Shown here piece after piece: positions 7,977 to 56,620 of a stretch of 64,000 nucleotides of DNA. The notes beneath the pieces were generated by a model, which was given only the letters and a program-made list of their open reading frames with translations, was not told the DNA's origin and searched no databases. The translations under genes were made by a program, and so were the position numbers. The stretch is from Desulfatiglandales bacterium (lineage in GTDB: Bacteria; Desulfobacterota; DSM-4660; Desulfatiglandales; Desulfatiglandaceae): assembly GCA_963662465.1 (NCBI GenBank), contig OY759599.1:384001-448000 (forward strand). Reading direction: 5' to 3'. Position 1 is the first letter of the stretch, and every line of letters begins with the position of its first letter.

Positions 7977-9028
7977 CGGATGCGCCCTGCTTTAAATTCA
8001 GCGTACAGTTTTTCTCTTTGCTCGTGTTTGGTTTTCCCCGTAATCAACGGATAGCCCAATGTTTTTGAAATCTCTTCCAATTATGAAATATATTGTTCGA
8101 TGATCAAGATGTTGTCATCGGGATGATTGGCGATCAAATCCCCGGCAAGTTCGATTTTCAAAGGGTTTTCGACCGCGATGCGGTATCGCTGTCGTTTGGG
8201 GGCGCCGGCATAGCGGATTTCTTCCTTTCGAGGGAGCGGTATCCGGTATTCGGTGCAAATGGCTTCGGCGATGAATCCACGGTTTTCGAGGGTTTTCCAT
8301 GGCACATCGTAGCGTTTGGGACCGATCAGCGCAAATACGTCATCTTCCTTGCCGTCCTCTCGGACCAGGGTTGCGGTCAGACCCAACCGCCGTTTGGCTT
8401 GAATCGTCGTCGTGGCGCGGAACACCGGCGCCGGCAGCATGTGTACCTCGTCGTAAATGATCAACCCCCAGTTGTTGTGGGTAAAGATTTCCAGGTTTTT
8501 CATGGGCTCCAATTTATTCCGGCGATGGGTCAGCATTTGATAGGTGGTAATGGTGACCGGCTTGATCATTTTTAACTGACCGGTATATTCTCCAATGGAT
8601 TCGGGCGTCAGGGTTGTTTTGGATAACAACTCGTCTCGCCATTGATGCACGGAGACGTTGTTGGTGGCGATGATGAGGGTATGGCCTGAAATCCCGGCGG
8701 TGGTCCCGATGCCGATAATGGTTTTTCCGGACCCGCAGGGGAGTAAAATGATACCGCTGCCCCCCGTGGAACGGCCCCTTTGATAGAATGTATCGACGGC
8801 ATCCCTCTGGTAGTCCCGCAACGCAAATGCGTTGCCGTCCGTGTCAACATTTCGCAGGGCAATATCCAGATGGGCGCCCTCGACATAACCGCAAACATCC
8901 TTTACCGGATAGCCTGCCTTGATCAGCGCTTGTTTCACATTGCCCCGGTCGCCGGCATCGATCAGCCATCCGTCTTCGGCGGGTGTCGCCCAGAAGTGTT
9001 CTAATTCGGTGTTTTGCCCGATTCGATT
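7977..9028 (-). pseudogene. Partial duplicate of the XPB-like helicase gene (near-identical to 32349-33400)
   Basis: Direct ~1.05-kb match with scattered substitutions, premature stop at 8081, both ends truncated. Confidence 0.9.
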
Positions 9029-11309: not shown

Positions 11310-12171
11310 TATTCATTTGCTGGAGTTGCGTTACGCTCATTGCCGGATAATGAATCACCAGGCTTTAAAGCGATTGAGGGATTCCATCGAAACTTACGGG
11401 CAGATCGTTCCGGCCCTGGCTATTGAAGAAAAAGACAAACTGATTCTGATTGATGGCTACCTGCGTGTTCGAGCGCTTTGTGCTTGTGGAAAGGACCGGA
11501 TATGTGTCCAATTCTCAAAAGAAAACGAACAAAATGCCATGTTTTCGCTTTTAACCAAGGCCAATGAACGGCAATGGGAAGTCATTGAGCAGTCTGTTTT
11601 ACTTCAGGAATTACATCGGCGTTTTGGGTGCAGCCTCTCCCATATTGCAACCCGAATAGGGCGCGACAAGAGTTTTGTAAAACGGCGGCTGGACCTGGTT
11701 GAAGCCCTGCCGGAAAATATTTTGAGAACCGTGATTGCAGGCTCACTTTCAACCTGGGCTGCCAGCCGTGTCATGGCGCCGTTGGCGCGCGCCAACGGTG
11801 AAGACGCACAAAAACTGTTGGCCCACCTGGAAAAAGAACCTCTATCCACAAGGGAACTGGCCCGTTTCTACGCACATTACCAGAAAAGCAACCGGTCTGT
11901 TCGAGACCACATGCTGGAAAATCCATCCCTTTTCATAAAAGTTCTCGAACAAAGAACCCAGTCTAAACAAGCCAAAGAAGTTCATGATGGACCGGAAGGC
12001 AAATGGTTCAAGGATATTGAAATGGCATATGCGGTTCTCAAACGTCTGGTGAAAACCGTTTCGCATGTCCATTACCCAAAAAGCGATCAGTTGAAGAAAC
12101 AAACGCTCAAAACCTGGGTGAAAAAGATAGAAAAACAAGCACTGGAACTCAAGAAAGCGACCCAATTATGA
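11287..12171 (+). CDS. ParB/Spo0J-like protein
   Basis: LRDSIETYGQIVP...LIDGYLRVRA (ParB N-domain), HTH SHIATRIGRDKSFVKRRL; coupled to istA. Confidence 0.8.
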   Translation: MESIRTVDIHLLELRYAHCRIMNHQALKRLRDSIETYGQIVPALAIEEKDKLILIDGYLRVRALCACGKDRICVQFSKENEQNAMFSLLTKANERQWEVIEQSVLLQELHRRFGCSLSHIATRIGRDKSFVKRRLDLVEALPENILRTVIAGSLSTWAASRVMAPLARANGEDAQKLLAHLEKEPLSTRELARFYAHYQKSNRSVRDHMLENPSLFIKVLEQRTQSKQAKEVHDGPEGKWFKDIEMAYAVLKRLVKTVSHVHYPKSDQLKKQTLKTWVKKIEKQALELKKATQL

Positions 12172-13550
12172 TCCGACAATCCAAAAAAGATGCCATTGTG
12201 GAATTGAAAAAAACCGGCATGAGTTTGCGCGACATCGCCAAAACCCTGAAGGCCGGTCGCAATACCGTCACGAAGGTTTTAGATGATCATGACGAAGAGG
12301 CGGTACCCCAAAGGAACTCCCGGTATGAAGAACATGTCCCGTTGATCCGCGAGCTTTTCAAGGAATGTAAAGGAAATGCCGTGCGAGTAGCCGAGGAACT
12401 GGAAAGCCGCCAACAGATCAAAATCCCTTATCAGAGTCTGACCTGGATTATGAGAAAGTACGAGATCCGGGAACGTAAAAAAAGACGGGCGGGCCAATAC
12501 CATTTTAAACCCGGTCAGGAGATGCAGCATGATACGTCACCCCATCTGGTTGTCATTAATGGGAAAAAAATGTCGACCCAGTGCGCGTCCCTGACCCTGG
12601 CCTTTTGCCGAAGGATTTTTATTCAGTATTACCCCTGTTTTACCCGGTTTGAGTGCAAGGTTTTCCTAAAAAAAGCATTCGAGTTTATGGACGGGGTGTG
12701 TTCCCGGTGCATGGTTGACAACACCAATGTTATTGTGGCCGGCGGCACCGGGCCTGATGCATTGATTGCGCCTGAAATGAAATACTTCGGCGATATGTAT
12801 GGAACCCGGTTTGAGGCCCATGCTGTAGGAGACGCCAATCGAAGTGCCCGTGTGGAAAGGCCTTTTCATTTTGTGGAAAACAATTTTCTTCCCGGTAGAA
12901 CATTTGTTAGCTGGCAGGATTTGAACCGGCAGGCAATCGACTGGTGCCGGAATACAAGCGATAAAAAGTTTAAACGGGCTTTAGGGATGACGCCGGATGA
13001 GGCCTATGTCATTGAAAAGCCATATCTCATTGATTTACCGGCATACCAGCCGCCAGTCTATGTGGCAGAACACAGGGTAGCCGATGTTCAGGGATATGTG
13101 CACTTGGACACCAACCGCTATTCAGTCCCTGAAGCGCTGATTGGGAACTCCCTGGAAGTACAGAAACATTGGCTCAAGGTCATCGTTTACGACAAAAACA
13201 CAAAAGTGGCGGAACATGACCGCATACTGGATAAACGCAACACCCGAACAACCCTGCCCGGTCACCATGTTCCCATTCGAAGAAAAAAAGATCCCCGAAT
13301 CCCTTCAAAAGAAGAACAGCTGTTGACGGGAGAGGATGCCATCCTGGATGAGTATGTGGCTGAACTGAAGAAAAGAAGTCACGGTCGCGGTGTGGTCAAG
13401 TTACGTCGGTTGCTTCATCTGAAACGCACTTATCCCGGGGAACCTTTTTTGAAAGCCATAACACAGGCGCTTAAATATGGACTTTTTGATTTGTCGCGTC
13501 TGGAAAACATTATTCTCGATTATATCGCGGGAGACTTTTTTGATCTATGA
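12168..13550 (+). CDS. istA: IS21-family transposase
   Basis: N-terminal HTH, PGQEMQHD, VDN, ARVER DDE core, NRYSVP. Confidence 0.9.
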   Translation: MIRQSKKDAIVELKKTGMSLRDIAKTLKAGRNTVTKVLDDHDEEAVPQRNSRYEEHVPLIRELFKECKGNAVRVAEELESRQQIKIPYQSLTWIMRKYEIRERKKRRAGQYHFKPGQEMQHDTSPHLVVINGKKMSTQCASLTLAFCRRIFIQYYPCFTRFECKVFLKKAFEFMDGVCSRCMVDNTNVIVAGGTGPDALIAPEMKYFGDMYGTRFEAHAVGDANRSARVERPFHFVENNFLPGRTFVSWQDLNRQAIDWCRNTSDKKFKRALGMTPDEAYVIEKPYLIDLPAYQPPVYVAEHRVADVQGYVHLDTNRYSVPEALIGNSLEVQKHWLKVIVYDKNTKVAEHDRILDKRNTRTTLPGHHVPIRRKKDPRIPSKEEQLLTGEDAILDEYVAELKKRSHGRGVVKLRRLLHLKRTYPGEPFLKAITQALKYGLFDLSRLENIILDYIAGDFFDL

Positions 13551-14266
13551 AAAAGAAAATTGAACAGTTACTCATTGATTTGAAGTTTAAAGGCATGCTG
13601 AAGGCTCTCGAAGAACAGTTGGCTTCGGCTGAAAAGAACGGTTTTTCCATTCACGAGGTCATCTACAATCTCCTGGCTGAGGAATTACGTTTCCGGCAGG
13701 AGCGCAGCATGATCTATCGGGTCCAGATTGCAAAGCTTCCATGGGAATGGACCCTCAACTCCTTTCCGTTTGATCTTCAGCCGGGAATACAGAAGAGCCG
13801 GATCATGACGTTGTCCGGCCTTGACTTTATCAGCCGAAGAGAAAACATCGTGTTCCATGGAAAAACCGGCGTCGGCAAAACGGGATTGGCCGTGGGGATC
13901 CTTCGTCAAGCCATTATTGCCGGGTACCGGGGGCGTTTTTATAATGTTCAGGATTTGCTGGATCAGCTCTATGCGTCTTTGGCAGATCGGTCCACCCCGA
14001 AACTCCTCAATGCCCTTTGCAGATATGACCTGCTTCTGCTCGATGAACTGGGATACCTGACCCTCAAAAAAGAGCAGATGAACGCCTTTTTTAAACTCAT
14101 GAAAGATCGCTATGAAGCCGGTCGGTCCACAATTATTACGACCAATCTTCAACCTGAACAATGGTATTCGCTGCTTGAACCAAAGGACATGGTCGATGCC
14201 TTGCTGGATCGTCTCAACCATCGCTGCATCAACATTCATATTGATGGTCCTTCCCTCAGAAAATGA
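13547..14266 (+). CDS. istB: IS21 helper ATPase
   Basis: GKTGVGKT, LLLLDELGY, TIITTN, ALLDRL. Confidence 0.95.
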   Translation: MKKKIEQLLIDLKFKGMLKALEEQLASAEKNGFSIHEVIYNLLAEELRFRQERSMIYRVQIAKLPWEWTLNSFPFDLQPGIQKSRIMTLSGLDFISRRENIVFHGKTGVGKTGLAVGILRQAIIAGYRGRFYNVQDLLDQLYASLADRSTPKLLNALCRYDLLLLDELGYLTLKKEQMNAFFKLMKDRYEAGRSTIITTNLQPEQWYSLLEPKDMVDALLDRLNHRCINIHIDGPSLRK

Positions 14267-18402: not shown

Positions 18403-19479
18403 GTGAAAAAAGAGATGAATCGGTTTTTAACGATTTGGGCGATTGGTTTGGCCGTGGTTTGCCTGTCTTTTGGAGCCCATGGGCGTGCGGCGGAAAAAGA
18501 CTGTAATGTGTTCATCAGTTGCGGGAATCCCTACGACTGCTGCAACAATGGAACCCAGGAACAGGACGGCAACTGCACCTGGTGGGCGTGGAAGATGATG
18601 TATGACCGGTGGGGGTATCGGGCGCCCACCTGGCACAATGCCGGTCAAGTATGGTTGGATGGCGCGCAACAGGCTGGGTTGCCCACGGGTGATGGAAATT
18701 CTCCCAGAGTCGGGTCCGTTTTTGTCCAATCCGGGCATGTGGGGTGGGTTTTCAAGGTGGACGGGAATACCATCTACACCACTCAAATGAACTGCGGATA
18801 TCCGGACCAGTACACTAGCGAACAGAACGATTACAAAACCTATGACATTACTACGCAAACGTTCCTGGGTTTCATCTATCCGCCGGACGGCTCCGGGCCG
18901 GTGCCGGATACGGGTGTGACAAAATGTTATGACACGGCCGGAAACGTCATCATCTGTCCGGATTCCGGTGAGGACTATTACGGCCAGGACGGCAATTACA
19001 CCATCAACCCGCCGTCCTATACCAAGCTGGATTCGCAGGGTTATGTTCTATCGGTTGCCGCCACATCCTGGGCCATGGTTCTAGACAATGTCACCGGGCT
19101 GTACTGGGAGGCGAAACAGAACAAGGACGGTGCCTCACATTACGATAATCCCCATGATGCCGACAATACCTATAACTGGTACGACGCGCAGAATATCTTC
19201 ATCAAGGCCCTAAACGACGCCAATTTCGGCGGCCATTGCGACTGGCGTTTGCCCACCAACAAGGAGCTGGCTTTTCTGGTGGATTACAGCATCGCGTATC
19301 CGGGGCCGACCATCAACATGACCTATTTTGCGAATACGGTGTCGTCCTATTACTGGTCGTCTACTACCTATGCCAATACTCCGGACGACGCCTGGCTCGT
19401 CGATTTCTACGATGGCTACCGCCTCTGGTACTGTAAGTCCTACAGCGATTACGTTCGGGCGGTTCGCGGCGGACAGTGA
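18403..19479 (+). CDS. DGR target 1: signal peptide + CHAP domain + DUF1566 (Lcl/CLec-type) domain with C-terminal VR
   Basis: GNCTWWAW...GHVGWV (CHAP Cys/His); PDTG..CYD, DNVTGLYWE, DWRLPT..EL, YWSST, VRAVRGG; VR matches TR. Confidence 0.9.
   Translation: MKKEMNRFLTIWAIGLAVVCLSFGAHGRAAEKDCNVFISCGNPYDCCNNGTQEQDGNCTWWAWKMMYDRWGYRAPTWHNAGQVWLDGAQQAGLPTGDGNSPRVGSVFVQSGHVGWVFKVDGNTIYTTQMNCGYPDQYTSEQNDYKTYDITTQTFLGFIYPPDGSGPVPDTGVTKCYDTAGNVIICPDSGEDYYGQDGNYTINPPSYTKLDSQGYVLSVAATSWAMVLDNVTGLYWEAKQNKDGASHYDNPHDADNTYNWYDAQNIFIKALNDANFGGHCDWRLPTNKELAFLVDYSIAYPGPTINMTYFANTVSSYYWSSTTYANTPDDAWLVDFYDGYRLWYCKSYSDYVRAVRGGQ
19338..19473 (+). repeat. DGR variable repeat VR1
   Basis: 136-bp ungapped match to TR; 21 mismatches, 20 at TR adenines. 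Confidence 0.97.
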
Positions 19480-19526
19480 TCGATTATTCGGTAATTTGAT
19501 GCTTTGTTCATTTGGAGCTGAAAATC

Positions 19527-19925
19527 TTGGCAAGGTATGAACATCTACCCCTATACAAAGCGGCCATGGACATGGGAGTCTATCTCGAAGGTATGGTCCA
19601 TAACTTCAGCCGGTATCACAAATATACCACCGGTCAGGAACTGCGTAGCCTGGCCCGCGAAATCATCAAGCTTATCATCTGGGCCAATTCGGTCCGGGAT
19701 AGGAGCGACATCCTGTCGGAACTGGTGATCCAGTGCGAAATGCTCAAGACCATGCTCTTTTTTGCCAAGGAAACCAAGGCGATTCAGAGCTTCAAGGCAT
19801 TTTAGCACGCCTCCGGTCTGGCGGTGTTGCTTTGCAGACAGAGCGAGGGCTGGCTTAAAAGCAGTCGAAAGGGCCCGAATCGCCCACCCCCGGATGGGAA
19901 AGGGGGGCCGGCGAGTGCGCCATGA
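19527..19925 (+). pseudogene. avd: Avd-like four-helix-bundle accessory protein interrupted by an in-frame TAG (19803-19805)
   Basis: MARYEHLPLYK...FSRYHKYTTGQELR; frame continues after TAG as HASGLAVLLCRQSEGWLKS; lies between target and TR. Confidence 0.8.
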
Positions 19926-20243
19926 ACACTGTGCGCCTCCCCCGCCTGGCGGTTCATGCAGGCATATTCATGCAGGGCGTGGAGGGATCCGCGCCCGGTG
20001 GAAGGAAATTCATTGCGGCCTGCACAGCTGTGGGTGCGACTGTAGGTGCGACTTCAGTCGCACAGCAACGTCGTGCGCCAATACCGGGTATGGCTTGTGC
20101 GAATAAATTCGCACCTACAGTGCAACCGTCCCGACGGCGGATGTTTTGACCCCGGGATGGGTTGTGCGGCTGAAGCCGCACCTACAGCACAGTGCCACAG
20201 CACAGCGCTATTGTGGGTTTCCTTCATCAAGTGGGGAGGTGAT

Positions 20244-20379
20244 GGTGTCGTCCAATTACTGGTCGTCTACTACCAATGCCAATAATCCGAACAACGCCTG
20301 GAACGTCAATTTCAACAATGGCAACGACAACTGGAACAATAAGTCCAACAACAATTACGTTCGGGCGGTTCGCGGCGGA
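20244..20379 (+). ncRNA. DGR template repeat (TR)
   Basis: AAC/AAT-rich invariant copy of both VRs (17 AAY codons), between avd and RT. Confidence 0.97.
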
Positions 20380-22009
20380 AAGTGTTCCCCTGCTGTCCTT
20401 CCGGTCAATTTATGATGCGTATCTGGATTGCCGAAGGAGAAAGCGCAATACCATCAACGCGCTCAGGTTTGAGGCCGATTTGTTGACCAACCTCTTTGAC
20501 CTGGCGCTGGACCTGCAAAAGGGACGGTATCAGCCCTCCCGCTCTGTCTGCTTTGTCACACGGTCCCCGAAGCTCCGCGAGGTATTCGCCGCGGACTTCA
20601 GGGACCGGATCGTTCATCATCTGGTGGTGCGGGAACTGGAGAAGATATGGGAACCGCGCTTTATTTATGATTCTTATGCGTCCAGAAAAGGGAAAGGCAT
20701 CCACTCGGCCGTGGACCGGCTTCAGGGATTCATGCGGAAGGTGACCCGCAACGGCAAGCGGGCCGGCTTTTTTCTGCAACTGGACATTCGGTCTTTCTTC
20801 ATGAGTATAGACAAACGCATTTTGTTTTCCCTGTTTGACCGGGACCGGAAAACATCGGATGTGCTGCGGTGGGTTTTGTCGGTACTCATTTTTCATGATC
20901 CCACGACGAATTATTGTTTCAAGGGAAACGGGAGATTGCTGGACGCCATTCCGCCCCATAAAACTCTTTTCAAGACCGGCCTGTACAAAGGGCTCCCTAT
21001 CGGAAATCTGACGAGCCAGTTTTTCGCCAACGTCTATCTCAATGAACTGGATCAGTTTGTCAAACATGAGCTGAAGTGCCGGTTCTATTTGAGGTATGTG
21101 GATGATTTTATCCTATTGGCGGAGAGTGAAGATCAACTGTTGAAATGGCGTCAGGCGCTGAGCGGGTTTCTGGAAGACCACCTGGCGCTACGTCTGAGAG
21201 GCGGTGACCGGGTGCGCCGGGTTTCTGACGGTGCGGATTTTCTGGGGTATGTGACCCGCCCCGGGTACCGTCTGGTGCGAAAACGCGTGGTGAACAATTT
21301 TAAATATGTGCTGGCGCGAACGCGGGACAAAATGGTGGTGGAGATGGCGGGTGACGCAGCGGCCGTCGGTGCGGCAGGACGTGCGGTTGCCGGTGCGACT
21401 GTAGGTGCGACTTCAGTCGCACAACCGGAAAAGAAAATCACCCGCGTCACCGGCGCCCCCGCAGGTGCGAATTCATTCGCACAGCCCACCAGGGTTGCGG
21501 TCCCGGGCATCCGCACACTCACGATCCGTCCCCGAATGGTCCTGCATTTGCGGCAGGTCCTGGCCTCTTACCTGGGCCATTTTCAGCATGCGGACAGCCG
21601 GTATCTGGTTGAGAGTATTTTCACAAAACACACCTGGCTCAGGCAGTTGTTTGTGTTTGACCGGGGTAAACTGAAGATGAAAGCCCTTCCCGTTCAAACC
21701 TTTCCATGCATGCGGGAGCAGGTGTGGTTTTTTAGAAGGCATTATCCCGGATTCATACTTTTGTTCCGGGTGGGCCGCTATGTGGAGCTTTACGGAAAAG
21801 ATGCTCGGATTTTGCGGGAATATGCCCATTTGAAGCTAGTGAAACAGCATCGGGGCCTGCGGGATTCGGTGGGGTTTCCGGTGAGCATGACCCGGGGCAT
21901 ACGCCGAAAGCTTTTAATGAGGGGTCACCGAACGGCGCTGGTGGCCCAGGGCGTCACCGGCGGGCGGGTGAGACGCCGGTATGTGGCAGAGCTGGCGTTT
22001 GCGACCTGA
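20276..22009 (+). CDS. DGR reverse transcriptase with C-terminal MutS-I-like domain (start uncertain; ORF overlaps TR)
   Basis: FRDRIVHH, LDIRSFF, GLPIGNLTSQFFAN (DGR-type SQ), RYVDDF, DFLGY; tail ILLFRVGRYVELYGKDA...VGFP. Confidence 0.95.
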   Translation: MPIIRTTPGTSISTMATTTGTISPTTITFGRFAAESVPLLSFRSIYDAYLDCRRRKRNTINALRFEADLLTNLFDLALDLQKGRYQPSRSVCFVTRSPKLREVFAADFRDRIVHHLVVRELEKIWEPRFIYDSYASRKGKGIHSAVDRLQGFMRKVTRNGKRAGFFLQLDIRSFFMSIDKRILFSLFDRDRKTSDVLRWVLSVLIFHDPTTNYCFKGNGRLLDAIPPHKTLFKTGLYKGLPIGNLTSQFFANVYLNELDQFVKHELKCRFYLRYVDDFILLAESEDQLLKWRQALSGFLEDHLALRLRGGDRVRRVSDGADFLGYVTRPGYRLVRKRVVNNFKYVLARTRDKMVVEMAGDAAAVGAAGRAVAGATVGATSVAQPEKKITRVTGAPAGANSFAQPTRVAVPGIRTLTIRPRMVLHLRQVLASYLGHFQHADSRYLVESIFTKHTWLRQLFVFDRGKLKMKALPVQTFPCMREQVWFFRRHYPGFILLFRVGRYVELYGKDARILREYAHLKLVKQHRGLRDSVGFPVSMTRGIRRKLLMRGHRTALVAQGVTGGRVRRRYVAELAFAT

Positions 22010-22016
22010 TCGAGTA

Positions 22017-23270
22017 TAGGTGCGGCTTGTAGGTGCGACTTCAGTCGCACAACAAATCCCTCGTTGTGCGACTAAAGTCGCACCTACAGTGGTGGTCTAG
22101 ATGGAGGTGATGGGAAAAATTGAAATGGGATTTACGGGTTGGGTTTTGATGACCAGTGGTCTCAAGAGATTGTGTTGTTGCGGGGTGGTATGGCGGATTG
22201 CTGTGCGACTGAAGTCGCACCTACAGCAGGACAAGGCTGGAGGGAATGAGGATGGAGTGTTGTGCGACTAAAGTCGCACCTACAGTTAGGAGCGTCCAAA
22301 TGCGGGGGATGCATCGATGAAGGGAAGGGGTGCTCCATTATATCCGCCAGGCTATGGGGCGTTGCGGGCAGGCCGGTGGAGCGAATCGGGGCGGTGTTAC
22401 ATGATTACCACGGTTACCGCCGACCGTGCGCCGGTTTTTCGCGATCTGTTTGCCGGTCGTTGCGTTGTTCGGGAGATGATGCGGTTGCACGGTGATGGAG
22501 TGGTGGCATCTCTGGCCTGGGTGATCATGCCTGATCACTTTCACTGGCTGGCGGTGCCGGCGAGTCCATGGAGCCTTTCAAAAGTCATTCAATTGCTGAA
22601 GGGGAGATCCGCGAGACGTGTGAATGAATATCTGGGTCGTACGGGCAGCCTCTGGCAGCCGGCGTTTTATGATTACGCGGTTCGGAAGGACGAAGATCTT
22701 CGCAAAATGGCCCGATATATCGTGGGTAATCCGATCAGAGCGGGTTTTGTGAAGCGGGTTGAGGAATACCCCCTGTGGGATGCGGTGTGGTTGTGATCGG
22801 TGTGTATGGCTCGATCCGATGTGTGGCCGGTTCACGATTGTAGGTGCGGCTTGTAGGTGCGACTTCAGTCGCACAACAAATCCTCACTGTGGGACTGAAG
22901 TCGCACTTACAGGAGGACAAGGCCGGAGGGAATGAGGATGGGGTGTTGTGCGACTAAATTTTCACCTACAGTCGTATTCCAAATGAAGGTGACGGGAAAG
23001 ATTGAAATGGGATTTACGGGTTGGGTTCTGATGGTCGGTGGTCTCAAGAGATCGTGTCGTTGCGGGGTGGTAAGGACGATTGTAGGTGCGGCTTCAGCCG
23101 CACATTTGGGCTGCGGATGATGGATGTACGGCGGGTGTTGTGCAACTAAATTTGCACCTACAGTGTTGTGCGACTAAAGTCGCACCTACAGTCGTATTCC
23201 AAATGAAGGTGACGGCAATGGGGGGTTGTGGGCAGGCGGATTATTGTGCGACTAAAGTCGCACCTACAGC
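22017..23270. repeat. REP/REPIN field around RAYT
   Basis: More than 10 copies of TGTAGGTGCGACT(TC/TT)AGTCGCACA or variants in both orientations, with longer duplicated spacers; more copies at 17922-18334, 20041-20186, 21400-21483, 26821-26871, 55810-55869. Confidence 0.9.
22317..22796 (+). CDS. REP-associated tyrosine transposase (RAYT)
   Basis: YMITTVT, VIMPDHFHW, LWQ..FYD..VR, YIVGNP.RAG; flanked by GTAG-type REPs. Confidence 0.92.
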   Translation: MKGRGAPLYPPGYGALRAGRWSESGRCYMITTVTADRAPVFRDLFAGRCVVREMMRLHGDGVVASLAWVIMPDHFHWLAVPASPWSLSKVIQLLKGRSARRVNEYLGRTGSLWQPAFYDYAVRKDEDLRKMARYIVGNPIRAGFVKRVEEYPLWDAVWL

Positions 23271-23513: not shown

Positions 23514-26500
23514 ATGAAAGCAATGCGATGGGCAACAGCCGTCATGGCCCTGTGGGTCGTAATCACGATCACGCAAACGGCGTACGCGGCCTTTGTGGAC
23601 AATGGCAACGGCACGGTGTCCGATACGCGAAGCGGCCTCATGTGGCAGCAGGATACGGCCAGGGATGCTGGGGGAAACTATGATACCATGACCTGGAAGG
23701 AGGCCTTGGCCCACTGTGCCAATCTGGAGCTGCCGCCAGGCGGCTATACCGACTGGCGCCTGCCCACCATCAAGGAGATTCGATCCCTGGTGGATTGCAG
23801 TCAGTATAGTCCCGCCATTAATCGCAATGCCTTTCCCGATACGGTGTCGTCCAATTACTGGTCGTCTACTACCTATGCCAGTAGTCCGAACTACGCCTGG
23901 AGCGTCTATTTCTACAGTGGCGGCGACTACTGGGGCAATAAGTCCTACTACGGTTGCGTTCGGGCGGTTCGCGGCGGACAGTCTGGGGCATTCGGTTCTT
24001 TGGATCATTTGGTCATTTCGGTGCCGGCGGGCGCCCAGTCGGTTGGGGATGATTTTACCATCACCGTCACCGCCGAGGATGCGGCAGGGCTGCAGGTGCT
24101 GGATTTTGCGGGTAGCGTGAACCTTTCGGCCGAGGGGAATACCGTTGACCCCACCGCAGTGACCCTCTCCGGCGGGCATGGGAGCGCGTCCATTCGCATC
24201 TTGAACGTCGGCAAAACCCGGCTCAACTGCGACGGTTATGGGGCCTACGGCAACAGCCGGTATTTTGACGTGGCCGGGGAGAATCCCTGCATCGGGTCCA
24301 TCGAGGGGAGCGTGGTGGACTGCCGGGGCACCCGCGTGAGCCAGGCCACGGTGCGGGCCCGTGACGTGGAAGGGGACGTGATGGCGAGCACCACCACGGA
24401 CGGTAACGGAAGGTTTACGCTGGCAGACTTGACCTGCGGGCCGTATGATATCGAGGTTGAAAAATCCGGCAAAACCGCCACCGGCATCTGGAAGACGGTG
24501 GGCGGACATTACTGCACCACGGCCTTCGGGATCGAGCTGCCTTTGAACTGCGGAACTGAACAAGCGGTGGTGGTATTGGTCCCCGGCATCATGGGGTCCA
24601 GCGAATCGTCATGGGGGGGGGTTCCCAGCTTGCCGGCCGGTGCACCGGCACGCGCTTCGGATTTGCACATTCATGCCGAGGGGACAACCGGTTTTAAAAA
24701 ACTCAAAGAAGAACTGGAAGCGGCAAATTTTACCGTGGTGGAGTGTCCCTGGGACTGGCGGCTCAATTGTGAGCGGGCCTACCGGGAATACCTGAAGGAC
24801 AAAATAGACGAAGCCCTGGCGGATTCAGGCGCCGACAAGGTGTATGTGGTGGCCCACAGCATGGGGGGGCTTATGGTACGGGCCTACATTCAGAACAAGG
24901 AGAATTATCGGAACGACATCGCCAAAGTGGCCTTTGTGGGCACCCCGCATCAGGGGTCCTGCAATCCCTATTACATCTGGGAGGGGGGCGATCCCCTGGC
25001 GGTCGACGATATGGTCGGTCCGGCACTGGACTTTTATACGCGGACCACCGAGAAATTGTGGGGGAATTACAAGAGAGGCTGGAACACTGAAAACCACGAT
25101 GAGATCCGTTCGTTTATCAGAAGCGACGTGCAGTCCCTGCTGCAACTGATGTATGCGGAAAAATTCCTGACGGATATGCGTTCTTACTGGGCCGTGGAAA
25201 CCCCCGGCAATACCAACGACTGGCTGGACGACTTAAACGAAGGCGATGGGAATTACAACAAGCCGTACGATGTCATGAGCAAGGACGGTTCAAGCGGCAA
25301 CAAGGTGGAGGCCCGGTGCTTTGTGGGAGATTCGGCTGCTTCCACCATTCGGTGGGTCAAGATGGCCCGCACGAGAGGCAGTTCCGGGGCTACCGATGAC
25401 CGGTATGAGGACGGTATTCCACGAAATGAACGGCCTCAGAAAGATAACGTTTTATGGGGAAGCGGCGACAATACGGTTCCCTATGACAGCGCCGTTTATC
25501 CTTACACGAAGGGCTGGGCCCAATTGTGCGCGAAAAAATCCCAAAAAAAACACAGTGAACTGGTGAAGGATTTTGCGACGGACATCGTGCTTTTTTTGGA
25601 CCCCGATGCAGTGGTTTCCTCAAATGCCGCCACAAGGGATGACCCGACTCCGCCCGAACTGTCGGTTTCCATCACCGGCGGGATGCGCGTCCAGATCATA
25701 GATCCCGAGAACCGCAAAACCGGCGCCGACCCGGCCACGGGCCTGCCGGTGCAAAATATCCCCGATTCTATGTGCGCCTTTGATGTGGGAGGCGGCGGCG
25801 CGGCGGTGCAAAGCCCCGCGGCCGGGGCCTACCGGATCACTTATTTTGGCCAGGCGGACCGGGATTTCCAGATCTCGCTAGACTACCAGGATGACACCCT
25901 GACGGAGACCTACAGCTTTCAGGGGTTTCGGCCGGCAGACGCACAGACCTTTACCGTGAGTCTCAACCCCGCAGCCTCTCCCCGTCTCACCATCACCCCG
26001 TCCTGCAAGGCTCCCACCAATCTGGAGGCCAACCCCTACACGTCCGGCGAAACCCCGAAAACCCGCCTTTCCTGGTCCGCAACGGACGAAGCCGGCCTTT
26101 CCGGCTACAATGTCTATGGGGTGGCCCAACTGTCTCCCTATTTCTCCAAAGTGGCCACCGTGGCATCGAATGTCACCACTTATGATACATCAGACACCTG
26201 GAGTTCCGATGCCGCCACCACTGTCATGACCTATGCGGTGACGGCGGTGAAAACCGACGGCACGGAAAGCTTTTTTTCCAATACGGCCCAGAACGATGAC
26301 CGGGACCATGACGGCGTGACCGACGCACGGGAAGCAACAGACGGCACCAACCCGGACAACCCGGATTCGGACGCGGATGGCCTGAATGACGGGAAAGAAT
26401 CGGCATACGGTACCAACCCCCTGGTGAAGGACACGGACGGGGATACCTGGAATGACGGCGATGAAGTATCCGCCGGCACCGATCTCCTGGATCCTTATTC

Positions 26501-26789
26501 CATACCCCGAAGCGTGGGGTATGTGGACCCGGCCGGTGGCTGCAACGGCAACACCCCGTGCTACACAACCATACAGGCGGCCGTGGAAGGCGCCAAAAAC
26601 GGGGGCGTTGTTGAGATTAAGCAGGGAACCTATAGCGAAGAAGTGACGCTCGGGGCTGACAAGCAGGTGATGCTTCAGGGGAATTGGAACGATTCATTTA
26701 ACACCCAGAGCGGCATAACGACGCTGACGCACGCACCCAAAGCGCCCCTGGGGCGATTGACGCTGCGGGATCTGCTGGTGAAACCGTGA
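23514..26789 (+). CDS. DGR target 2: secreted multidomain protein (N-terminal DUF1566 with VR, Ig/CarboxypepD-like, LCAT-like alpha/beta hydrolase, FN3, Ca-binding Asp repeats)
   Basis: Signal peptide; DNGNGTVSD..SGLMWQ, WRLPT, YWSST, VRAVRGG; VLVPGIMGS, WDWRL, AHSMGG, GTPHQGS, GDNTVP; DSDADGLNDG repeats. Confidence 0.9.
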   Translation: MKAMRWATAVMALWVVITITQTAYAAFVDNGNGTVSDTRSGLMWQQDTARDAGGNYDTMTWKEALAHCANLELPPGGYTDWRLPTIKEIRSLVDCSQYSPAINRNAFPDTVSSNYWSSTTYASSPNYAWSVYFYSGGDYWGNKSYYGCVRAVRGGQSGAFGSLDHLVISVPAGAQSVGDDFTITVTAEDAAGLQVLDFAGSVNLSAEGNTVDPTAVTLSGGHGSASIRILNVGKTRLNCDGYGAYGNSRYFDVAGENPCIGSIEGSVVDCRGTRVSQATVRARDVEGDVMASTTTDGNGRFTLADLTCGPYDIEVEKSGKTATGIWKTVGGHYCTTAFGIELPLNCGTEQAVVVLVPGIMGSSESSWGGVPSLPAGAPARASDLHIHAEGTTGFKKLKEELEAANFTVVECPWDWRLNCERAYREYLKDKIDEALADSGADKVYVVAHSMGGLMVRAYIQNKENYRNDIAKVAFVGTPHQGSCNPYYIWEGGDPLAVDDMVGPALDFYTRTTEKLWGNYKRGWNTENHDEIRSFIRSDVQSLLQLMYAEKFLTDMRSYWAVETPGNTNDWLDDLNEGDGNYNKPYDVMSKDGSSGNKVEARCFVGDSAASTIRWVKMARTRGSSGATDDRYEDGIPRNERPQKDNVLWGSGDNTVPYDSAVYPYTKGWAQLCAKKSQKKHSELVKDFATDIVLFLDPDAVVSSNAATRDDPTPPELSVSITGGMRVQIIDPENRKTGADPATGLPVQNIPDSMCAFDVGGGGAAVQSPAAGAYRITYFGQADRDFQISLDYQDDTLTETYSFQGFRPADAQTFTVSLNPAASPRLTITPSCKAPTNLEANPYTSGETPKTRLSWSATDEAGLSGYNVYGVAQLSPYFSKVATVASNVTTYDTSDTWSSDAATTVMTYAVTAVKTDGTESFFSNTAQNDDRDHDGVTDAREATDGTNPDNPDSDADGLNDGKESAYGTNPLVKDTDGDTWNDGDEVSAGTDLLDPYSIPRSVGYVDPAGGCNGNTPCYTTIQAAVEGAKNGGVVEIKQGTYSEEVTLGADKQVMLQGNWNDSFNTQSGITTLTHAPKAPLGRLTLRDLLVKP
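23843..23978 (+). repeat. DGR variable repeat VR2 (internal, codons ~111-155)
   Basis: 136-bp ungapped match to TR; 18 mismatches, all at TR adenines. Confidence 0.97.
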
Positions 26790-27111: not shown

Positions 27112-27741
27112 TCAGAGGATGCTGCCAAGAGATTTCACCCATTTCTCGAAGTCCTTTTTGACATGGTTCCAGTCCACCGGCCTGATCATTTTCACTTCAG
27201 GTTCCCCGTCCGCATCCGCAAAATACACCAGGCTCCTGATCACATGCCCTATGTCCCGATTTTGATATTTCTCCATGTACAGCCGCAGACAATCATCAAG
27301 GGAACAACCATGGGTCATGAGATGGTGCAGATCAAAAAAATCCTTGCGGGAGCCGCGGGAGGCTATGGCTGACAATTTCATGCAGGCAATGTCCTCCATG
27401 GAGGCCATTCGAATTGCCGTATCAGGTATGGGTACCGTGTTTCGAAGCATGGGATAGTCATAGCCGATGAAGCTGTTTTGAACTCCTTCAATGGTCAGAT
27501 AAACCGTCTCAATACTGACGGATTCCACCACATAGTCCATTTGCAATGCCTTCATCAGGCGGAATAGACCCTCCGGTTCACCAAGCTTCCGGATAAACCA
27601 GTCAAAATCAATAGAGCGCCGGTGACCCAGTTGAAGTGCCAGGGCGGTACCGCCGGCAAGGTAATACGCTGTGCCGGCGAGAACCTGCGCCAGAGAAGCG
27701 AGGACCCGCTTTTGTGCATCGCTCAATATTTCAATGTGCAT
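27112..27741 (-). CDS. AbiEii/AbiGii-type nucleotidyltransferase toxin
   Basis: YLAGGTALALQLGHRRSIDFD; MKL.AI..RG.RKDFFD. Confidence 0.88.
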   Translation of the reverse strand: MHIEILSDAQKRVLASLAQVLAGTAYYLAGGTALALQLGHRRSIDFDWFIRKLGEPEGLFRLMKALQMDYVVESVSIETVYLTIEGVQNSFIGYDYPMLRNTVPIPDTAIRMASMEDIACMKLSAIASRGSRKDFFDLHHLMTHGCSLDDCLRLYMEKYQNRDIGHVIRSLVYFADADGEPEVKMIRPVDWNHVKKDFEKWVKSLGSIL

Positions 27742-32092: not shown

Positions 32093-33763
32093 TTATCCAA
32101 AATACCGAATATGATATCTATACCCCTGTTCCACCAGAAAGAGCTGCCGGTTCAGCGCAAAGGTTTGTTCATCGGTTCCTTTGGACACCAGTGTATAAAA
32201 ACTGGAGAGCCGGTTATTGGGACGCAGGATGCGACCCAGGCGCTGGGCCTCTTCCTGGCGAGAACCGAATGACCCGGAAATCTGGATCATCACGTTGGCG
32301 TCGGGCAGGTCGATGGCGAAATTGGCAACCTTGGAAACCACCAGAATTCGGATGCGCTCTGCTTTAAATTCAGCGTACAGTTTTTCTCTTTGGTCGTGTT
32401 TGGTTTTCCCCGTAATCAACGGATAGCCCAATGTTTTTGAAATCTCTTCCAATTGTGAAATATATTGCCCGATGATCAATATGTTGTCATCGGGATGATT
32501 GGCGATCAAATCCCCGGCAAGTTCGATTTTCAAGGGATTTTCGGCCGCAATGCGGTATCGCTGTCGTTTGGGGGCGCCGGCATAGCGGATTTCTTCCTTT
32601 CGAGGGAGCGGTATCCGGTATTCGGTGCAAATGGCTTCGGCGATGAATCCACGGTTTTCGAGGGTTTTCCATGGCACATCGTAGCGTTTGGGGCCGATCA
32701 GCGCAAATACGTCATCTTCCTTGCCGTCCTCTCGGACCAGGGTTGCGGTCAGACCCAGCCGCCGTTTGGCTTGAATCGTGGTGGTGGCACGGAACACCGG
32801 CGCCGGGAGCATGTGTACCTCGTCGTAAATGATCAACCCCCAGTTGTTGTGGGTGAAGATTTCCAGGTTTTTCATGGGCTCCAATTTATTCCGGCGATGG
32901 GTCAGCATTTGATAGGTGGTAATGGTGACCGGCTTGATCATTTTTAACTGACCGGTGTATTCTCCAATGGATTCGGGCGTCAGGGTTGTTTTGGATAACA
33001 ACTCGTCTCGCCATTGATGCACGGAGACGTTGTTGGTGGCGATGATGAGGGTATGGCCTGAAATCCCGGCGGTGGTCCCGATGCCGATAATGGTTTTTCC
33101 GGATCCGCAGGGGAGTACAATGATACCGCTGCCCCCCGTGGAACGGCCTCCCTGATAGAATGTATCGACGGCATCCCTCTGGTAGTCCCGCAACGCAAAT
33201 GCGTTGCCGTCCGTGTCAACATTTCGCAGGGCAATATCCAGATGGGCGCCCTCGACATAACCGCAAACATCCTTTACCGGATAGCCTGCCTTGATCAGCG
33301 CTTGTTTCACATTGCCCCGGTCGCCGGCATCGATCAGCCATCCGTCTTCGGCGGGTGTCGCCCAGAAGTGTTCTAATTCGGTGTTTTGCCCGATTCGATT
33401 CAAAACGGTTTCATCGAGTACCCGCAGGCGGAGTTGCTTGTCCTCTGCCTTTTCGAGAATCAGCATGCCGTATAATCCATGCCACTCCCGCATATCGGCA
33501 AGCACATTGGCGGGGGGAGCATATCGAGAAAAGCGTATTATACCTGCCTTGATTTCCACAAATGAGGTGTTTAGCGCAGCAGCATTCCACATGGAGAGCG
33601 GCGTCACCCGATAGGTGTGAATAAATTCCGGGGATTTTACCAGTTCGGCAAATAAGGCCAGAAAGTCCCGACATTCGGCATATTGATGGTGCGCCGTTTC
33701 AAGCATGAAGGTACGATCGCTCTGGATAATCAGAGGTCCGGTTGCGGGAGTCGCATTTGTCAT
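32093..33763 (-). CDS. XPB/Ssl2-like DNA repair helicase
   Basis: PLIIQSD, ELVKSPE.IHTY, LPCGSGKT, DEVH, GLTAT, GSRQEEAQRLGRILRP. Confidence 0.93.
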   Translation of the reverse strand: MTNATPATGPLIIQSDRTFMLETAHHQYAECRDFLALFAELVKSPEFIHTYRVTPLSMWNAAALNTSFVEIKAGIIRFSRYAPPANVLADMREWHGLYGMLILEKAEDKQLRLRVLDETVLNRIGQNTELEHFWATPAEDGWLIDAGDRGNVKQALIKAGYPVKDVCGYVEGAHLDIALRNVDTDGNAFALRDYQRDAVDTFYQGGRSTGGSGIIVLPCGSGKTIIGIGTTAGISGHTLIIATNNVSVHQWRDELLSKTTLTPESIGEYTGQLKMIKPVTITTYQMLTHRRNKLEPMKNLEIFTHNNWGLIIYDEVHMLPAPVFRATTTIQAKRRLGLTATLVREDGKEDDVFALIGPKRYDVPWKTLENRGFIAEAICTEYRIPLPRKEEIRYAGAPKRQRYRIAAENPLKIELAGDLIANHPDDNILIIGQYISQLEEISKTLGYPLITGKTKHDQREKLYAEFKAERIRILVVSKVANFAIDLPDANVMIQISGSFGSRQEEAQRLGRILRPNNRLSSFYTLVSKGTDEQTFALNRQLFLVEQGYRYHIRYFG

Positions 33764-55722: not shown

Positions 55723-56620
55723 TTAACCGCCTGCGCAATACGCATTTGAAGCCTTTGGTTCATCGCGGATTAACGTGAAATCGCGCTTTGAGATTGTTTC
55801 GGTTCGGGCTGTAGGTGCGACTTTAGTCGCACAGGGTAGGCTTAATGTGCGACTAAAGTCGTACCTACAATCCGCTCAGAAGCCAAATCTCACGCGAATC
55901 CACAATGAGCCAAGCCTTTTCACGTTACTCTTAACGACATCCCAATTAATGAGTTGCCAGTTTGGAGCTTGTTGTGGAAGTGCACCCGTCACGAAGACCG
56001 TCATTTGCTATTCTCCCATCAGAAGGTTCTTCAAATTATCTCACGCATGAGCACCCGCCAAAATTCAGCTCCCTTTCGGGCCGGAGATAACTCCGTATCC
56101 CACCCATTACAGGAGGGCATTGGCTTGGTAAGGCGTCTTGCACCCGCAACACCAACGGCCTGCCTCACGGTTGGCTTGCCACAAAACTTTATGGCGATGT
56201 TACGAGCTTACCACGTTCCGCAATAAATACTGTTAACTGACTTAGGTCCACCCCCTATACCGGCGGCACAACATCCGCGCCGGGCGTACGTTCGAGACTC
56301 CCGACCTGGCCGCACACCGTTTGGTCCAAGCCTATCGGCCTCTTTGGCTTGTTGCTGTTTACGATACTGCAGGTGTTTGAATATACTGACCATATCAGTC
56401 AATCCCAGCCCTAATCCGGATGAGGTTTCCAGAGGAACAGTCCACTCACGCTTTCTGTCCTGACCTTCCAACTTCAAAGGTCCTCGGTACATTGTCGGGA
56501 GGGCTTCACACCCCGTCATCAGCGCAACGGCAGCATGCCTCCCTAGGATGTCGGTGGCGGAACACCGAGTTTCCACGATTCTTCTGTGAAAACATATATT
56601 TAAAGCAACTTCGTGTCGCA
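55723..56620 (-). mobile_element. Truncated group II intron B (5' part and RT N-terminus)
   Basis: (G)TGCGACACG 5' end; ORF from 56004 MTVFVTGA...WQLINW...VKRL|QMRIAQAV (RVT_N-like), split by MITE and cut by a deletion into corA. Confidence 0.75.
55757..55911 (+). mobile_element. REP-carrying MITE (complete, 155 bp)
   Basis: TIRs 18/24 (GGTTCATCGCGG.../...CCACAATGAGCC); perfect 8-bp TSD AAGCCTTT; inner inverted REP pair. Confidence 0.88.

Follow-up and report, generated by a model that had tools for sequence, protein, structure and literature searches.

The diversity-generating retroelement (DGR) of Bordetella phage BPP-1 (mtd-avd-TR-brt) employs a reverse transcriptase (RT) together with Avd, and its template repeat (TR) and variable repeat (VR) are related in an adenine-specific manner. 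The VR is situated at the end of a C-type-lectin fold and at the C-terminus of the protein, its initiation of mutagenic homing (IMH) sequence is distinct from the IMH* of the TR, and a GC-rich inverted repeat (hairpin/cruciform) is found on its 3' side. A short sequence directly 3' of the VR is required for efficient homing in BPP-1 (Guo 2011, PMC3240598). In the Legionella pneumophila DGR, of the CLec2 (DUF1566) class, the VR is located in a DUF1566/Lcl_C-type domain, the MutS-related component is the accessory gene MSL, and the target is the lipoprotein LdtA, whose VR is C-terminal and which depends on an inverted repeat (Wu 2018, PMC5758913). According to the same survey, a GC-rich inverted repeat is present downstream of the IMH in 34% of DGRs. 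Roux 2021 (PMC8144416) describes the C-terminal position of the VR as near universal, and ascribes it to the requirement that cis elements be intergenic; in a 2024 survey, 87% of VRs were at the end of the gene (PMC11661182). Here, we compare these systems with a DGR in a 64,000-nucleotide stretch of DNA from a Desulfatiglandales bacterium (GenBank assembly GCA_963662465.1, contig OY759599.1, positions 384,001–448,000 of the forward strand; hereafter the window, to which coordinates refer unless prefixed, features being on the + strand unless noted), in which one VR lies near the N-terminus of a 1091-residue protein with a putative lipase domain.

As for BPP-1, the repeats in the window are related through adenines. 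A direct repeat is present in three copies (19327–19477, 20233–20383, and 23832–23982), corresponding to VR1 (19338–19477), the TR (20244–20383; 140 nt with 44 adenines, and a 3' end GGAAAG(T) that represents IMH*), and VR2 (23843–23982). VR2 differs from the TR at 19 positions, all of them TR adenines, with no non-adenine mismatch over 140 nt, while 21 of the 22 mismatches in VR1 are at TR adenines and one is at a G. With a TR containing 31% A, the chance of a 19/19 outcome for VR2 is ~3e-10, and the adenine bias has a chance of ~3e-10 to 4e-10 for each full repeat (VR1, VR2, and the remote VR3 discussed below). The changed positions in VR2 fall at 23874–23956 (codons 121–148) and at 23979 in codon 156, where the TR has AAG and the VR has CAG. 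VR2 had been predicted to occupy 23843–23978, or codons ~111–155, of the 1091-residue frame; the position is correct, but homology to the TR extends to 23982 and covers the third base of codon 110 to the first base of codon 157. The count of ~935 residues following in frame is exact when taken from Gln156. VR1 constitutes the end of target gene 1 (18403–19479), which encodes a 358-residue protein with a CHAP domain (residues 55–130, Pfam E-value 4.6e-9) and an Lcl_C domain (residues 225–355, E-value 1.9e-31), and terminates with VRAVRGGQ-stop. In all, the TR serves at least three full VRs and one partial VR.

The RT is encoded by a 577-residue open reading frame (ORF; 20276–22009) that overlaps the TR, matches Pfam RVT_1 with an E-value of 4.5e-16, and contains the sequences IGNLTSQ and YVDD; a (I/V/L)GxxxSQ motif marks the RTs of DGRs (PMC3521204). 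Unlike BPP-1, the RT carries a MutS_I-like tail (21710–21955, residues 479–560, within the C-terminal 100 residues of the RT; E-value 1.5e-11). Three RTs with such tails have been described, where the similarity was called 'weak' (Wu 2018, PMC5758913), and a tail with MutS_I likeness is also located behind the RT in eight loci identified by tblastn among 79 loci encoding relatives of the long target protein, which were collected in a scan of one genome per species. Between VR1 and the TR is an Avd-like accessory gene of 97 residues (19512–19805; Pfam bAvd, E-value 7.6e-8), relatives of which are present in 18 of the 79 loci (tblastn, E<=1e-3; 13 near full length) and which is kept beside the TR and RT in related loci. 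A small conserved ORF of 114 residues without a Pfam family (19762–20106) is located between the Avd-like gene and the TR, and has relatives next to Avd in seven of the 79 loci. With an Avd-like gene, a TR, and an RT whose tail resembles MutS_I, the element has the sequence characteristics of a genuine DGR. The adenine-only mismatches and the RT motifs bear out the earlier assignment, and the presence of a DGR variable repeat inside the ORF at 23514–26789 is confirmed.

The 3' edge of VR2 is an IMH-like, GC-rich segment of 24 nt (23958–23981) that encodes VRAVRGGQ and has the same letters in VR1, VR2, VR3, and VR4, ending with CAG where the TR has AAG. This distinction holds in the related DGRs considered below, where VRs end with GGACAG and TRs with GGAAAG: within the lineage, codon 156 is CAG in 20 of the 22 VRs listed and AAG in nine of the 10 TRs. 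An IMH/IMH* difference is thereby present at the VR edge, and it is the kind of fixed change that distinguishes donor from recipient, which is also its predicted function here. Two related loci deviate from the usual CAG by having TAG, which makes the protein one residue shorter, or CCG (L031:6783-6920 and L025:7570-7702), and the IMH position is consequently not absolutely fixed. The adenine-bearing codons of the TR in the VR2 frame are 17 AAY, two TAC, ACT, ACC, GAC, and two AAG. Because the AAY, TAC, ACY, and GAC codons end in C or T they are unable to become stop codons, which leaves AAG. The statement that a single AAG in the 136-bp repeat can mutate to a stop is valid within those limits (codon 143), but a second AAG, codon 156, begins 1 nt outside them in the IMH* part. 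The first AAG is retained as Lys143 in VR1, VR2, and VR3, and we calculate that TAG would arise at this codon in ~6–8% of homing events for an assumed adenine substitution probability of 0.25–0.75. The theoretical repertoire of VR2 is calculated to be ~1e24 protein variants.

Target gene 2 (23514–26789, ATG start) encodes a secreted multidomain protein in which a signal peptide is followed by an Lcl_C domain, Ig-like/CarboxypepD_reg domains, an LCAT-like hydrolase, β-sandwiches, and TSP3 repeats, which are of a calcium-binding type. By inspection, residues 1–25 resemble a Sec signal peptide and end with AYA. The N-terminal Lcl_C (DUF1566) domain has a C-type-lectin fold (residues 33–153, 23610–23972; Pfam Lcl_C 124 bits), and Pfam places CarboxypepD_reg at residues 262–321 and a bacterial TSP3 repeat at residues 951–970. 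The α/β-hydrolase (residues 352–720, 24567–25673) matches Pfam LCAT PF02450 with 52.3 bits relative to a cut-off of 21, the profile match covering residues 352–572. A full-length AlphaFold model based on 20 sequences has a mean predicted local distance difference test score (pLDDT) of 71, with confident β-sandwich and hydrolase parts. When compared with the PDB by Foldseek, the hydrolase matches the lipase BlEst2, LCAT, lysosomal phospholipase A2 (LPLA2), and bacterial family I lipases with probability 1.00 and a template modeling score (target) of ~0.5. As in the LCAT, LPLA2, and family I enzymes, there is an AHSMGG nucleophile elbow (residues 447–452), and a conserved aspartate and histidine. 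Ser449 (24858–24860) and Asp652 (25467–25469) are invariant in a 20-sequence alignment, and His680 (25551–25553) is kept in >=90%. The prediction of a lipase is supported by the Pfam, Foldseek, and conservation results, and Ser449, Asp652, and His680 constitute the predicted catalytic triad. In contrast to these enzymes, to which its identity is <=15%, the hydrolase is embedded in a 1091-residue secreted protein behind a hypervariable lectin.

Because the lectin domain was left at pLDDT <50 in the full-length model, a separate model was made for residues 24–168 (61 sequences), where the pLDDT is 84 and the linker past Gln156 is <50. The best PDB match for this model is the C-terminal domain of Legionella Lcl (8q4e, E-value 1.7e-5), followed by C-type lectin-like domains. 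As for other DGRs, VR2 is thus at the end of a C-type-lectin fold; what is unusual is the position of this fold as the first domain rather than the last, which places the VR away from the protein's C-terminus. Unlike BPP-1, the lectin is N-terminal and 935 residues follow, and while the VR of the lipoprotein LdtA is C-terminal, the second target here has an N-terminal VR fused to an enzyme.

A long ORF with an internal VR could also be a chimera of the assembly, or the product of an accidental fusion in the recent past, the true target ending at GGQ like VR1, a concern already raised with the prediction. The public data (three runs from one study, kept as assembled contigs) would agree with such an error in that, for runs X1 and X2, contigs end at 23872 and start at 23958, and VR2 is not spanned by any contig listed. 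These break points, however, are the edges of the stretches that VR2 shares with the TR and VR1, where repeats would be expected to interrupt an assembly. Moreover, VR2 is followed by TCT and not by a stop codon, as in all 10 internal VRs analyzed below, and the continuity from Lcl_C to lipase is seen elsewhere. It is found in a syntenic contig from the same genus (G008:C296), which contains target 1, Avd, TR, RT, and a lipase gene with a VR, and in four DGR loci of other taxa. A search with the protein gave 1058 relatives at E<=0.001, and in a phmmer scan of 121 proteins (the best 120 of 1058 relatives being listed), Lcl_C precedes the lipase in 56 of the 56 that have both domains. The same-genus synteny, the domain order, and the four loci answer the concern, and we consider a chimera or accidental fusion extremely improbable.

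The explanation that best covers the adenine-only TR/VR pattern, the domain architecture, the synteny, and the recurrence of the layout as a whole is that the DGR diversifies the lectin head of a secreted lipase, resulting in a re-aimable lipase, and we hold this to be highly probable. From the established DGR mechanism, TR RNA would be reverse transcribed with misincorporation opposite adenines, and the cDNA would replace the VR up to the IMH. In target 2, mutagenic cDNA would then replace codons ~121–148, and the binding properties of the lectin head would be re-specified with the enzyme left untouched. The same should apply to the CHAP peptidoglycan hydrolase of target 1. Given their domain make-up (a CHAP peptidoglycan hydrolase and a lipase), both of the near targets are predicted to be envelope-degrading enzymes joined to a variable lectin, and the locus suggests a class of re-aimable lytic enzymes with hypervariable lectin heads. 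A target class of this kind (lipase/CHAP with hypervariable lectin) was not found in full-text searches of the literature available.

We further infer that VR2 is still being diversified. Alternatively, VR2 may be a fossil that was once written by the DGR but is no longer a recipient, for instance since insertion of a block of repetitive extragenic palindromic (REP)-like repeats with a REP-associated tyrosine transposase (RAYT) gene, so that only VR1 is serviced at present. This 1.5-kb block (22019–23270, without assigned strand; REP-like repeat families D3, D4, and D6, with a RAYT/IS200-like gene at 22317–22796, Pfam Y1_Tnp E-value 4.7e-10) is positioned between the RT and target 2 and is absent between the RT and the lipase gene in the same-genus contig. 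Cassettes of this type do decay, as illustrated by that contig and by a second DGR in the source genome with a 3'-truncated TR; the lack of a listed public contig across VR2 also leaves room for a fossil. In the same-genus DGR, the TR has a 1-nt insertion, the RT lacks ~536 nt internally, and the 35 mismatches between TR and VR2 are distributed as 22 at A and 13 elsewhere. By comparison, the pair in the window has no non-adenine mismatch over 140 nt, the RT frame is whole with its catalytic motifs kept, and the IMH and flank of VR2 are intact. DGRs also work in trans on remote VRs, and VR3, at a distance of 188 kb, has 23 of 25 mismatches at A. On balance, a fossil VR2 appears unlikely.

Several observations weigh against the reading of an active DGR that diversifies the lectin of target 2. 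The Avd match, at 33.3 bits, is below the Pfam cut-off of 40 bits; the low pLDDT of the lectin domain in the full-length model and the contig breaks within VR2 have been described above. In addition, when the VR2 allele is compared with its ortholog in the same-genus contig, 23 of the 37 differences are at the 44 TR-adenine positions and 14 at the 96 others. The differences are hence enriched at TR adenines but not confined to them, which is only partly as proposed; the DGR of the other allele is, however, damaged.

The layout recurs in other phyla. A self-comparison screen for TR/VR pairs identified adenine-specific pairs in 10 of the 79 loci (L021, L025, L031, L035, L047, L052 (weak), L055, L068, L088, and L097), the titles of which refer to metagenome-assembled genomes (MAGs) of Nitrospirota, Desulfobacterota, and Trichlorobacter. 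Nine of the ten have the full arrangement of an upstream VR, Avd, TR, RT, and a second VR in an N-terminal Lcl_C domain; for L052, the screen paired the downstream VR only. The upstream VR is C-terminal in a small open frame in seven loci, and this frame is broken in L031 and L068. The residues that follow the downstream VR number 1038, 989, 1094, 2122, 1167, 1126, >=65, 124, 104, and >=254, and the long proteins of four loci have the architecture Lcl_C, CarboxypepD_reg, LCAT, TSP3. In this widespread DGR lineage, the second target accordingly has its VR at the N-terminus as a rule. Together with its relatives, the locus offers a natural counter-example to the near-universal C-terminal VR, with second target proteins that are routinely 1000–2200 residues long. 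For DGR-based protein evolution tools, a design rule may be loosened, since a variable cassette could be placed ahead of the payload.

An N-terminal VR and a coding IMH have both been published before, and represent a known rarity and not a first. Internal or N-terminal VRs are on record for 9 of 34 Ig1 and 9 of 10 Ig2 targets, for one CLec2 target, for one CLec1 gene with three VRs, and for three N-terminal cases (Wu 2018, PMC5758913). Those cases resemble the present one in having the VR away from the 3' end of the gene and an IMH that overlaps, and is constrained by, coding sequence. They differ in that the targets are mostly of Ig type, with just one internal VR among the CLec2 DGRs, and in that the downstream signal was not analyzed; Table S1 of that survey may list members of the lineage described here. 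In the available literature, with the supplements of Wu 2018 outside the scope, no lectin-lipase DGR target, no two-target lineage layout, and no direct repeats 3' of the IMH were found. What is new is found 3' of the VRs, where phased TTTG repeats are noncoding or translated depending on the position of the VR. What makes the locus valuable is the N-terminal arrangement, as a regular trait of second targets in the lineage, together with the evidence that a recipient signal may be translated.

Behind the stop codon of VR1, ~40 noncoding bases (19478–19517) contain phased TTTG, with three overlapping ATTTGNNNATTTG-like matches at 19486–19514, and homologous noncoding flanks with TTTG repeats follow VR3 and VR4. 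The counterpart behind VR2 (23982–24021) is translated, with codons 157–169 encoding SGAFGSLDHLVIS, and has a GC content of 47.5% compared with 58.6% for the gene; we propose that it is a dual-coded recipient signal. For a systematic comparison, the first 40 nt were scored behind 22 VRs (12 terminal and 10 internal, from the four VRs of the window TR and nine loci) and 10 TRs. TTTG occurs on average 2.18 times in VR flanks, 18 of the 22 containing at least two; the mean is 0.3 in TR flanks and 0.23 in random windows of the same loci, where the probability of two or more is 0.027. The distance from one TTTG to the next is 8 nt in 17 of 28 intervals and 9 nt in five, with start offsets of 9–11, 17–18, and 26–27, and arrays comprise 3–4 repeats. 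Because the period, 8 nt, is not divisible by 3, the encoded peptide is non-repetitive. In contrast to the GC-rich inverted repeat of BPP-1, the repeats are direct; no inverted repeat of >=7 nt was found within 30 nt after VR1 or VR2, and only an AT-rich palindrome follows VR3, which rules out a hairpin or cruciform of the BPP-1 kind after these VRs. Within the window as a whole, ATTTGNNNATTTG with <=1 mismatch is not enriched, with 12 matches relative to 11.75 expected; the two VR flanks account for four of these matches.

The 10 internal VRs with a known TR allow the protein and nucleic acid levels to be separated. In the linker, conservation at codon positions 1, 2, and 3 is 1.50, 1.29, and 1.41 bits, whereas the corresponding values for the GTVTD..TGLMWQ motif in the same genes (n=8) are 1.67, 1.64, and 0.76 bits. 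The third codon position in the linker is thus conserved like the first and second, which points to a nucleic-acid signal, and we infer from these sequences that the linker is dual coded. Codon 3 provides an example: the residue is Ser, Leu, Pro, or Ala, with A as third base in 10 of 10, and in 76 of 97 over all internal sites of the 79 loci. The expectation that an internal VR requires homing signals to be coding sequence thereby gains support, the IMH block and TTTG array being translated as VRAVRGGQ-SGAFGSLDHLVIS.

A competing explanation is that the 3' flank is not a homing signal at all, but that the linker peptide is what matters in internal VRs, and that the terminal flanks are a slowly decaying relic or the promoter or ribosome-binding site of avd. 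In line with this, SGSFGNL(DH)xVIS is common behind Lcl_C in many multidomain proteins, and noncoding flanks resemble the peptide when read in frame, e.g., Q*SIIGQFDPLVIL after VR3. A requirement for the peptide does not, however, account for conserved third positions, given that synonymous sites are almost randomized in a second conserved motif of these genes, nor for a fixed third base at a codon where the residue varies, and the linker is predicted to be disordered. Noncoding arrays have been kept across loci labeled Nitrospirota, Desulfobacterota, and Trichlorobacter, with 3–4 repeats in a varying register. VR3 and VR4, which carry the array with no avd gene behind, speak against a role for avd expression.

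The source genome, a single contig of 8.16 Mb (prefix C1 below), provides a clean control, as the full set of its TRs is known. For 26 of its Lcl_C domain ends, the profile is matched to its last position. Two or more TTTG are present at 4 of the 5 ends addressed by a TR and at 5 of the 21 unaddressed ends. The array is absent where an unaddressed Lcl_C domain is internal: with more than 20 further residues, there is at most one TTTG in 12 of 12 cases, which argues against the linker-peptide explanation. The five unaddressed ends that do have an array favor the peptide or relic explanation, and include three paralogs of the FAVRS type described below and a further end directly upstream of a lipase paralog with three Lcl_C domains; a fourth FAVRS paralog (487296) is outside the table of 26 ends, since its profile match stops short.

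These unaddressed arrays are also a difficulty for a recipient signal. The array is not exclusive to addressed VRs and can persist where no TR addresses the site. It also occurs at many MAG sites with no TR seen in the DNA retrieved, and the loci compared are related, so that the counts are not independent. Instead of being a homing signal, the array could act in some other way at the level of the nucleic acid, or be left over from former cassettes. The unaddressed arrays may be remains of such cassettes, and a role for the array at the RNA level or in recombination may also be considered. Taking both sides together, the proposal that the flank is a peptide linker, decaying relic, or avd control element remains a serious contender, if with somewhat less than an even chance.

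The recipient-signal proposal would combine the GC-rich IMH, with CAG as opposed to AAG in the TR, and 3–4 TTTG repeats just 3' of it. The array would be untranslated after C-terminal VRs, and would be read as an SGxFGxL..VIS linker after N-terminal VRs. In its basic form, the recipient is recognized by the IMH and the TTTG array, which replaces the GC-rich inverted repeat and is tolerated as a flexible linker in front-loaded targets; for this form, the sequence evidence leaves us evenly divided. A broader form, to which we attach more doubt than belief, states that recipients throughout this DGR lineage are marked by 3–4 phased TTTG repeats 3' of the IMH and not by a cruciform, that the 'GQSGSFGNLVIS' linker after Lcl_C in Desulfobacterota and Nitrospirota is a homing signal read as protein, and that an Lcl_C domain carrying the linker is an addressable socket. 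If this broader form is true, a single retroelement could re-aim several enzymes that attack the envelope, in this case a CHAP amidase and a lipase. As coding and noncoding versions of one 3' flank are found side by side, recipient recognition by the DGR is directly testable in this lineage.

Further recipients and cassettes are present in the source genome. VR3 (L004, C1:591994-592129) is a full repeat that ends a 203-residue Lcl_C protein, and VR4 (L006, C1:7189400-7189453) is a partial repeat of 54 nt with 10 of 11 mismatches at A. The second DGR cassette (L016 and L098, C1:~3598000-3606000, minus strand) has a two-target layout like that of the main locus but is decayed, with a TR that is missing its 3' (IMH*) part and an RT recognizable only at residues ~96–297. 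Its VRs still show adenine-only mismatches, 15 of 15 for the second VR and 21 of 21 for the other, both over the 104-nt template; a separate alignment of the second VR gives 14 of 14 at A over 102 nt. This second VR is positioned in the N-terminal Lcl_C domain of a 1504-residue protein composed of Lcl_C, CarboxypepD_reg, and CARDB.

The four Lcl_C-like paralogs of the FAVRS type (L099–L102, at C1:487296, 1171540, 1603946, and 7906562) end with FAVRS(R/Q)xDG-stop, followed by a well conserved TTTG array, while identity upstream of the array is only ~72%. They were considered as VRs of a third DGR, but no A-rich template was found for them in the genome, nor are their mismatches A-specific. The paralog at 487296 has a 44-residue Avd remnant downstream, with no TR or RT, and the four may be orphaned former DGR targets. 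Target 2 itself has a paralog (C1:6758958-6760354, minus strand) of 1455 residues with three tandem Lcl_C domains, CarboxypepD_reg, LCAT, and TSP3, at 54% identity. A small Lcl_C protein directly precedes it and has a TTTG array after its stop codon, which corresponds to the two-target layout without Avd, TR, and RT.

The surroundings of the DGR have some additional features. In public contigs from runs X1 and X2, position 20119 is joined to 22027 with 22 other letters in between, and without the TR and RT. The depth at this joint is 74–79, compared with ~30–37 at the locus, the shorter side is matched by only 24 letters, and the end is in REP-like sequence, so the joint may be a repeat artefact; another copy of the REP-like repeats is located at 55801–55869. 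A public contig of 2312 nt with lower depth has ~85% identity to the RT and VR2 region. At a larger scale, a 300-nt direct repeat with 97% identity (7977–8276 and 32349–32648) is located within two ResIII/XPB-type helicase genes, one of which is a 343-residue fragment. The two copies bracket ~24 kb that include an IS21-type pair (12168–14266), the DGR, and an AbiEii toxin gene (27112–27741), and this segment may be an island that was inserted into the helicase gene, or that duplicated part of it.

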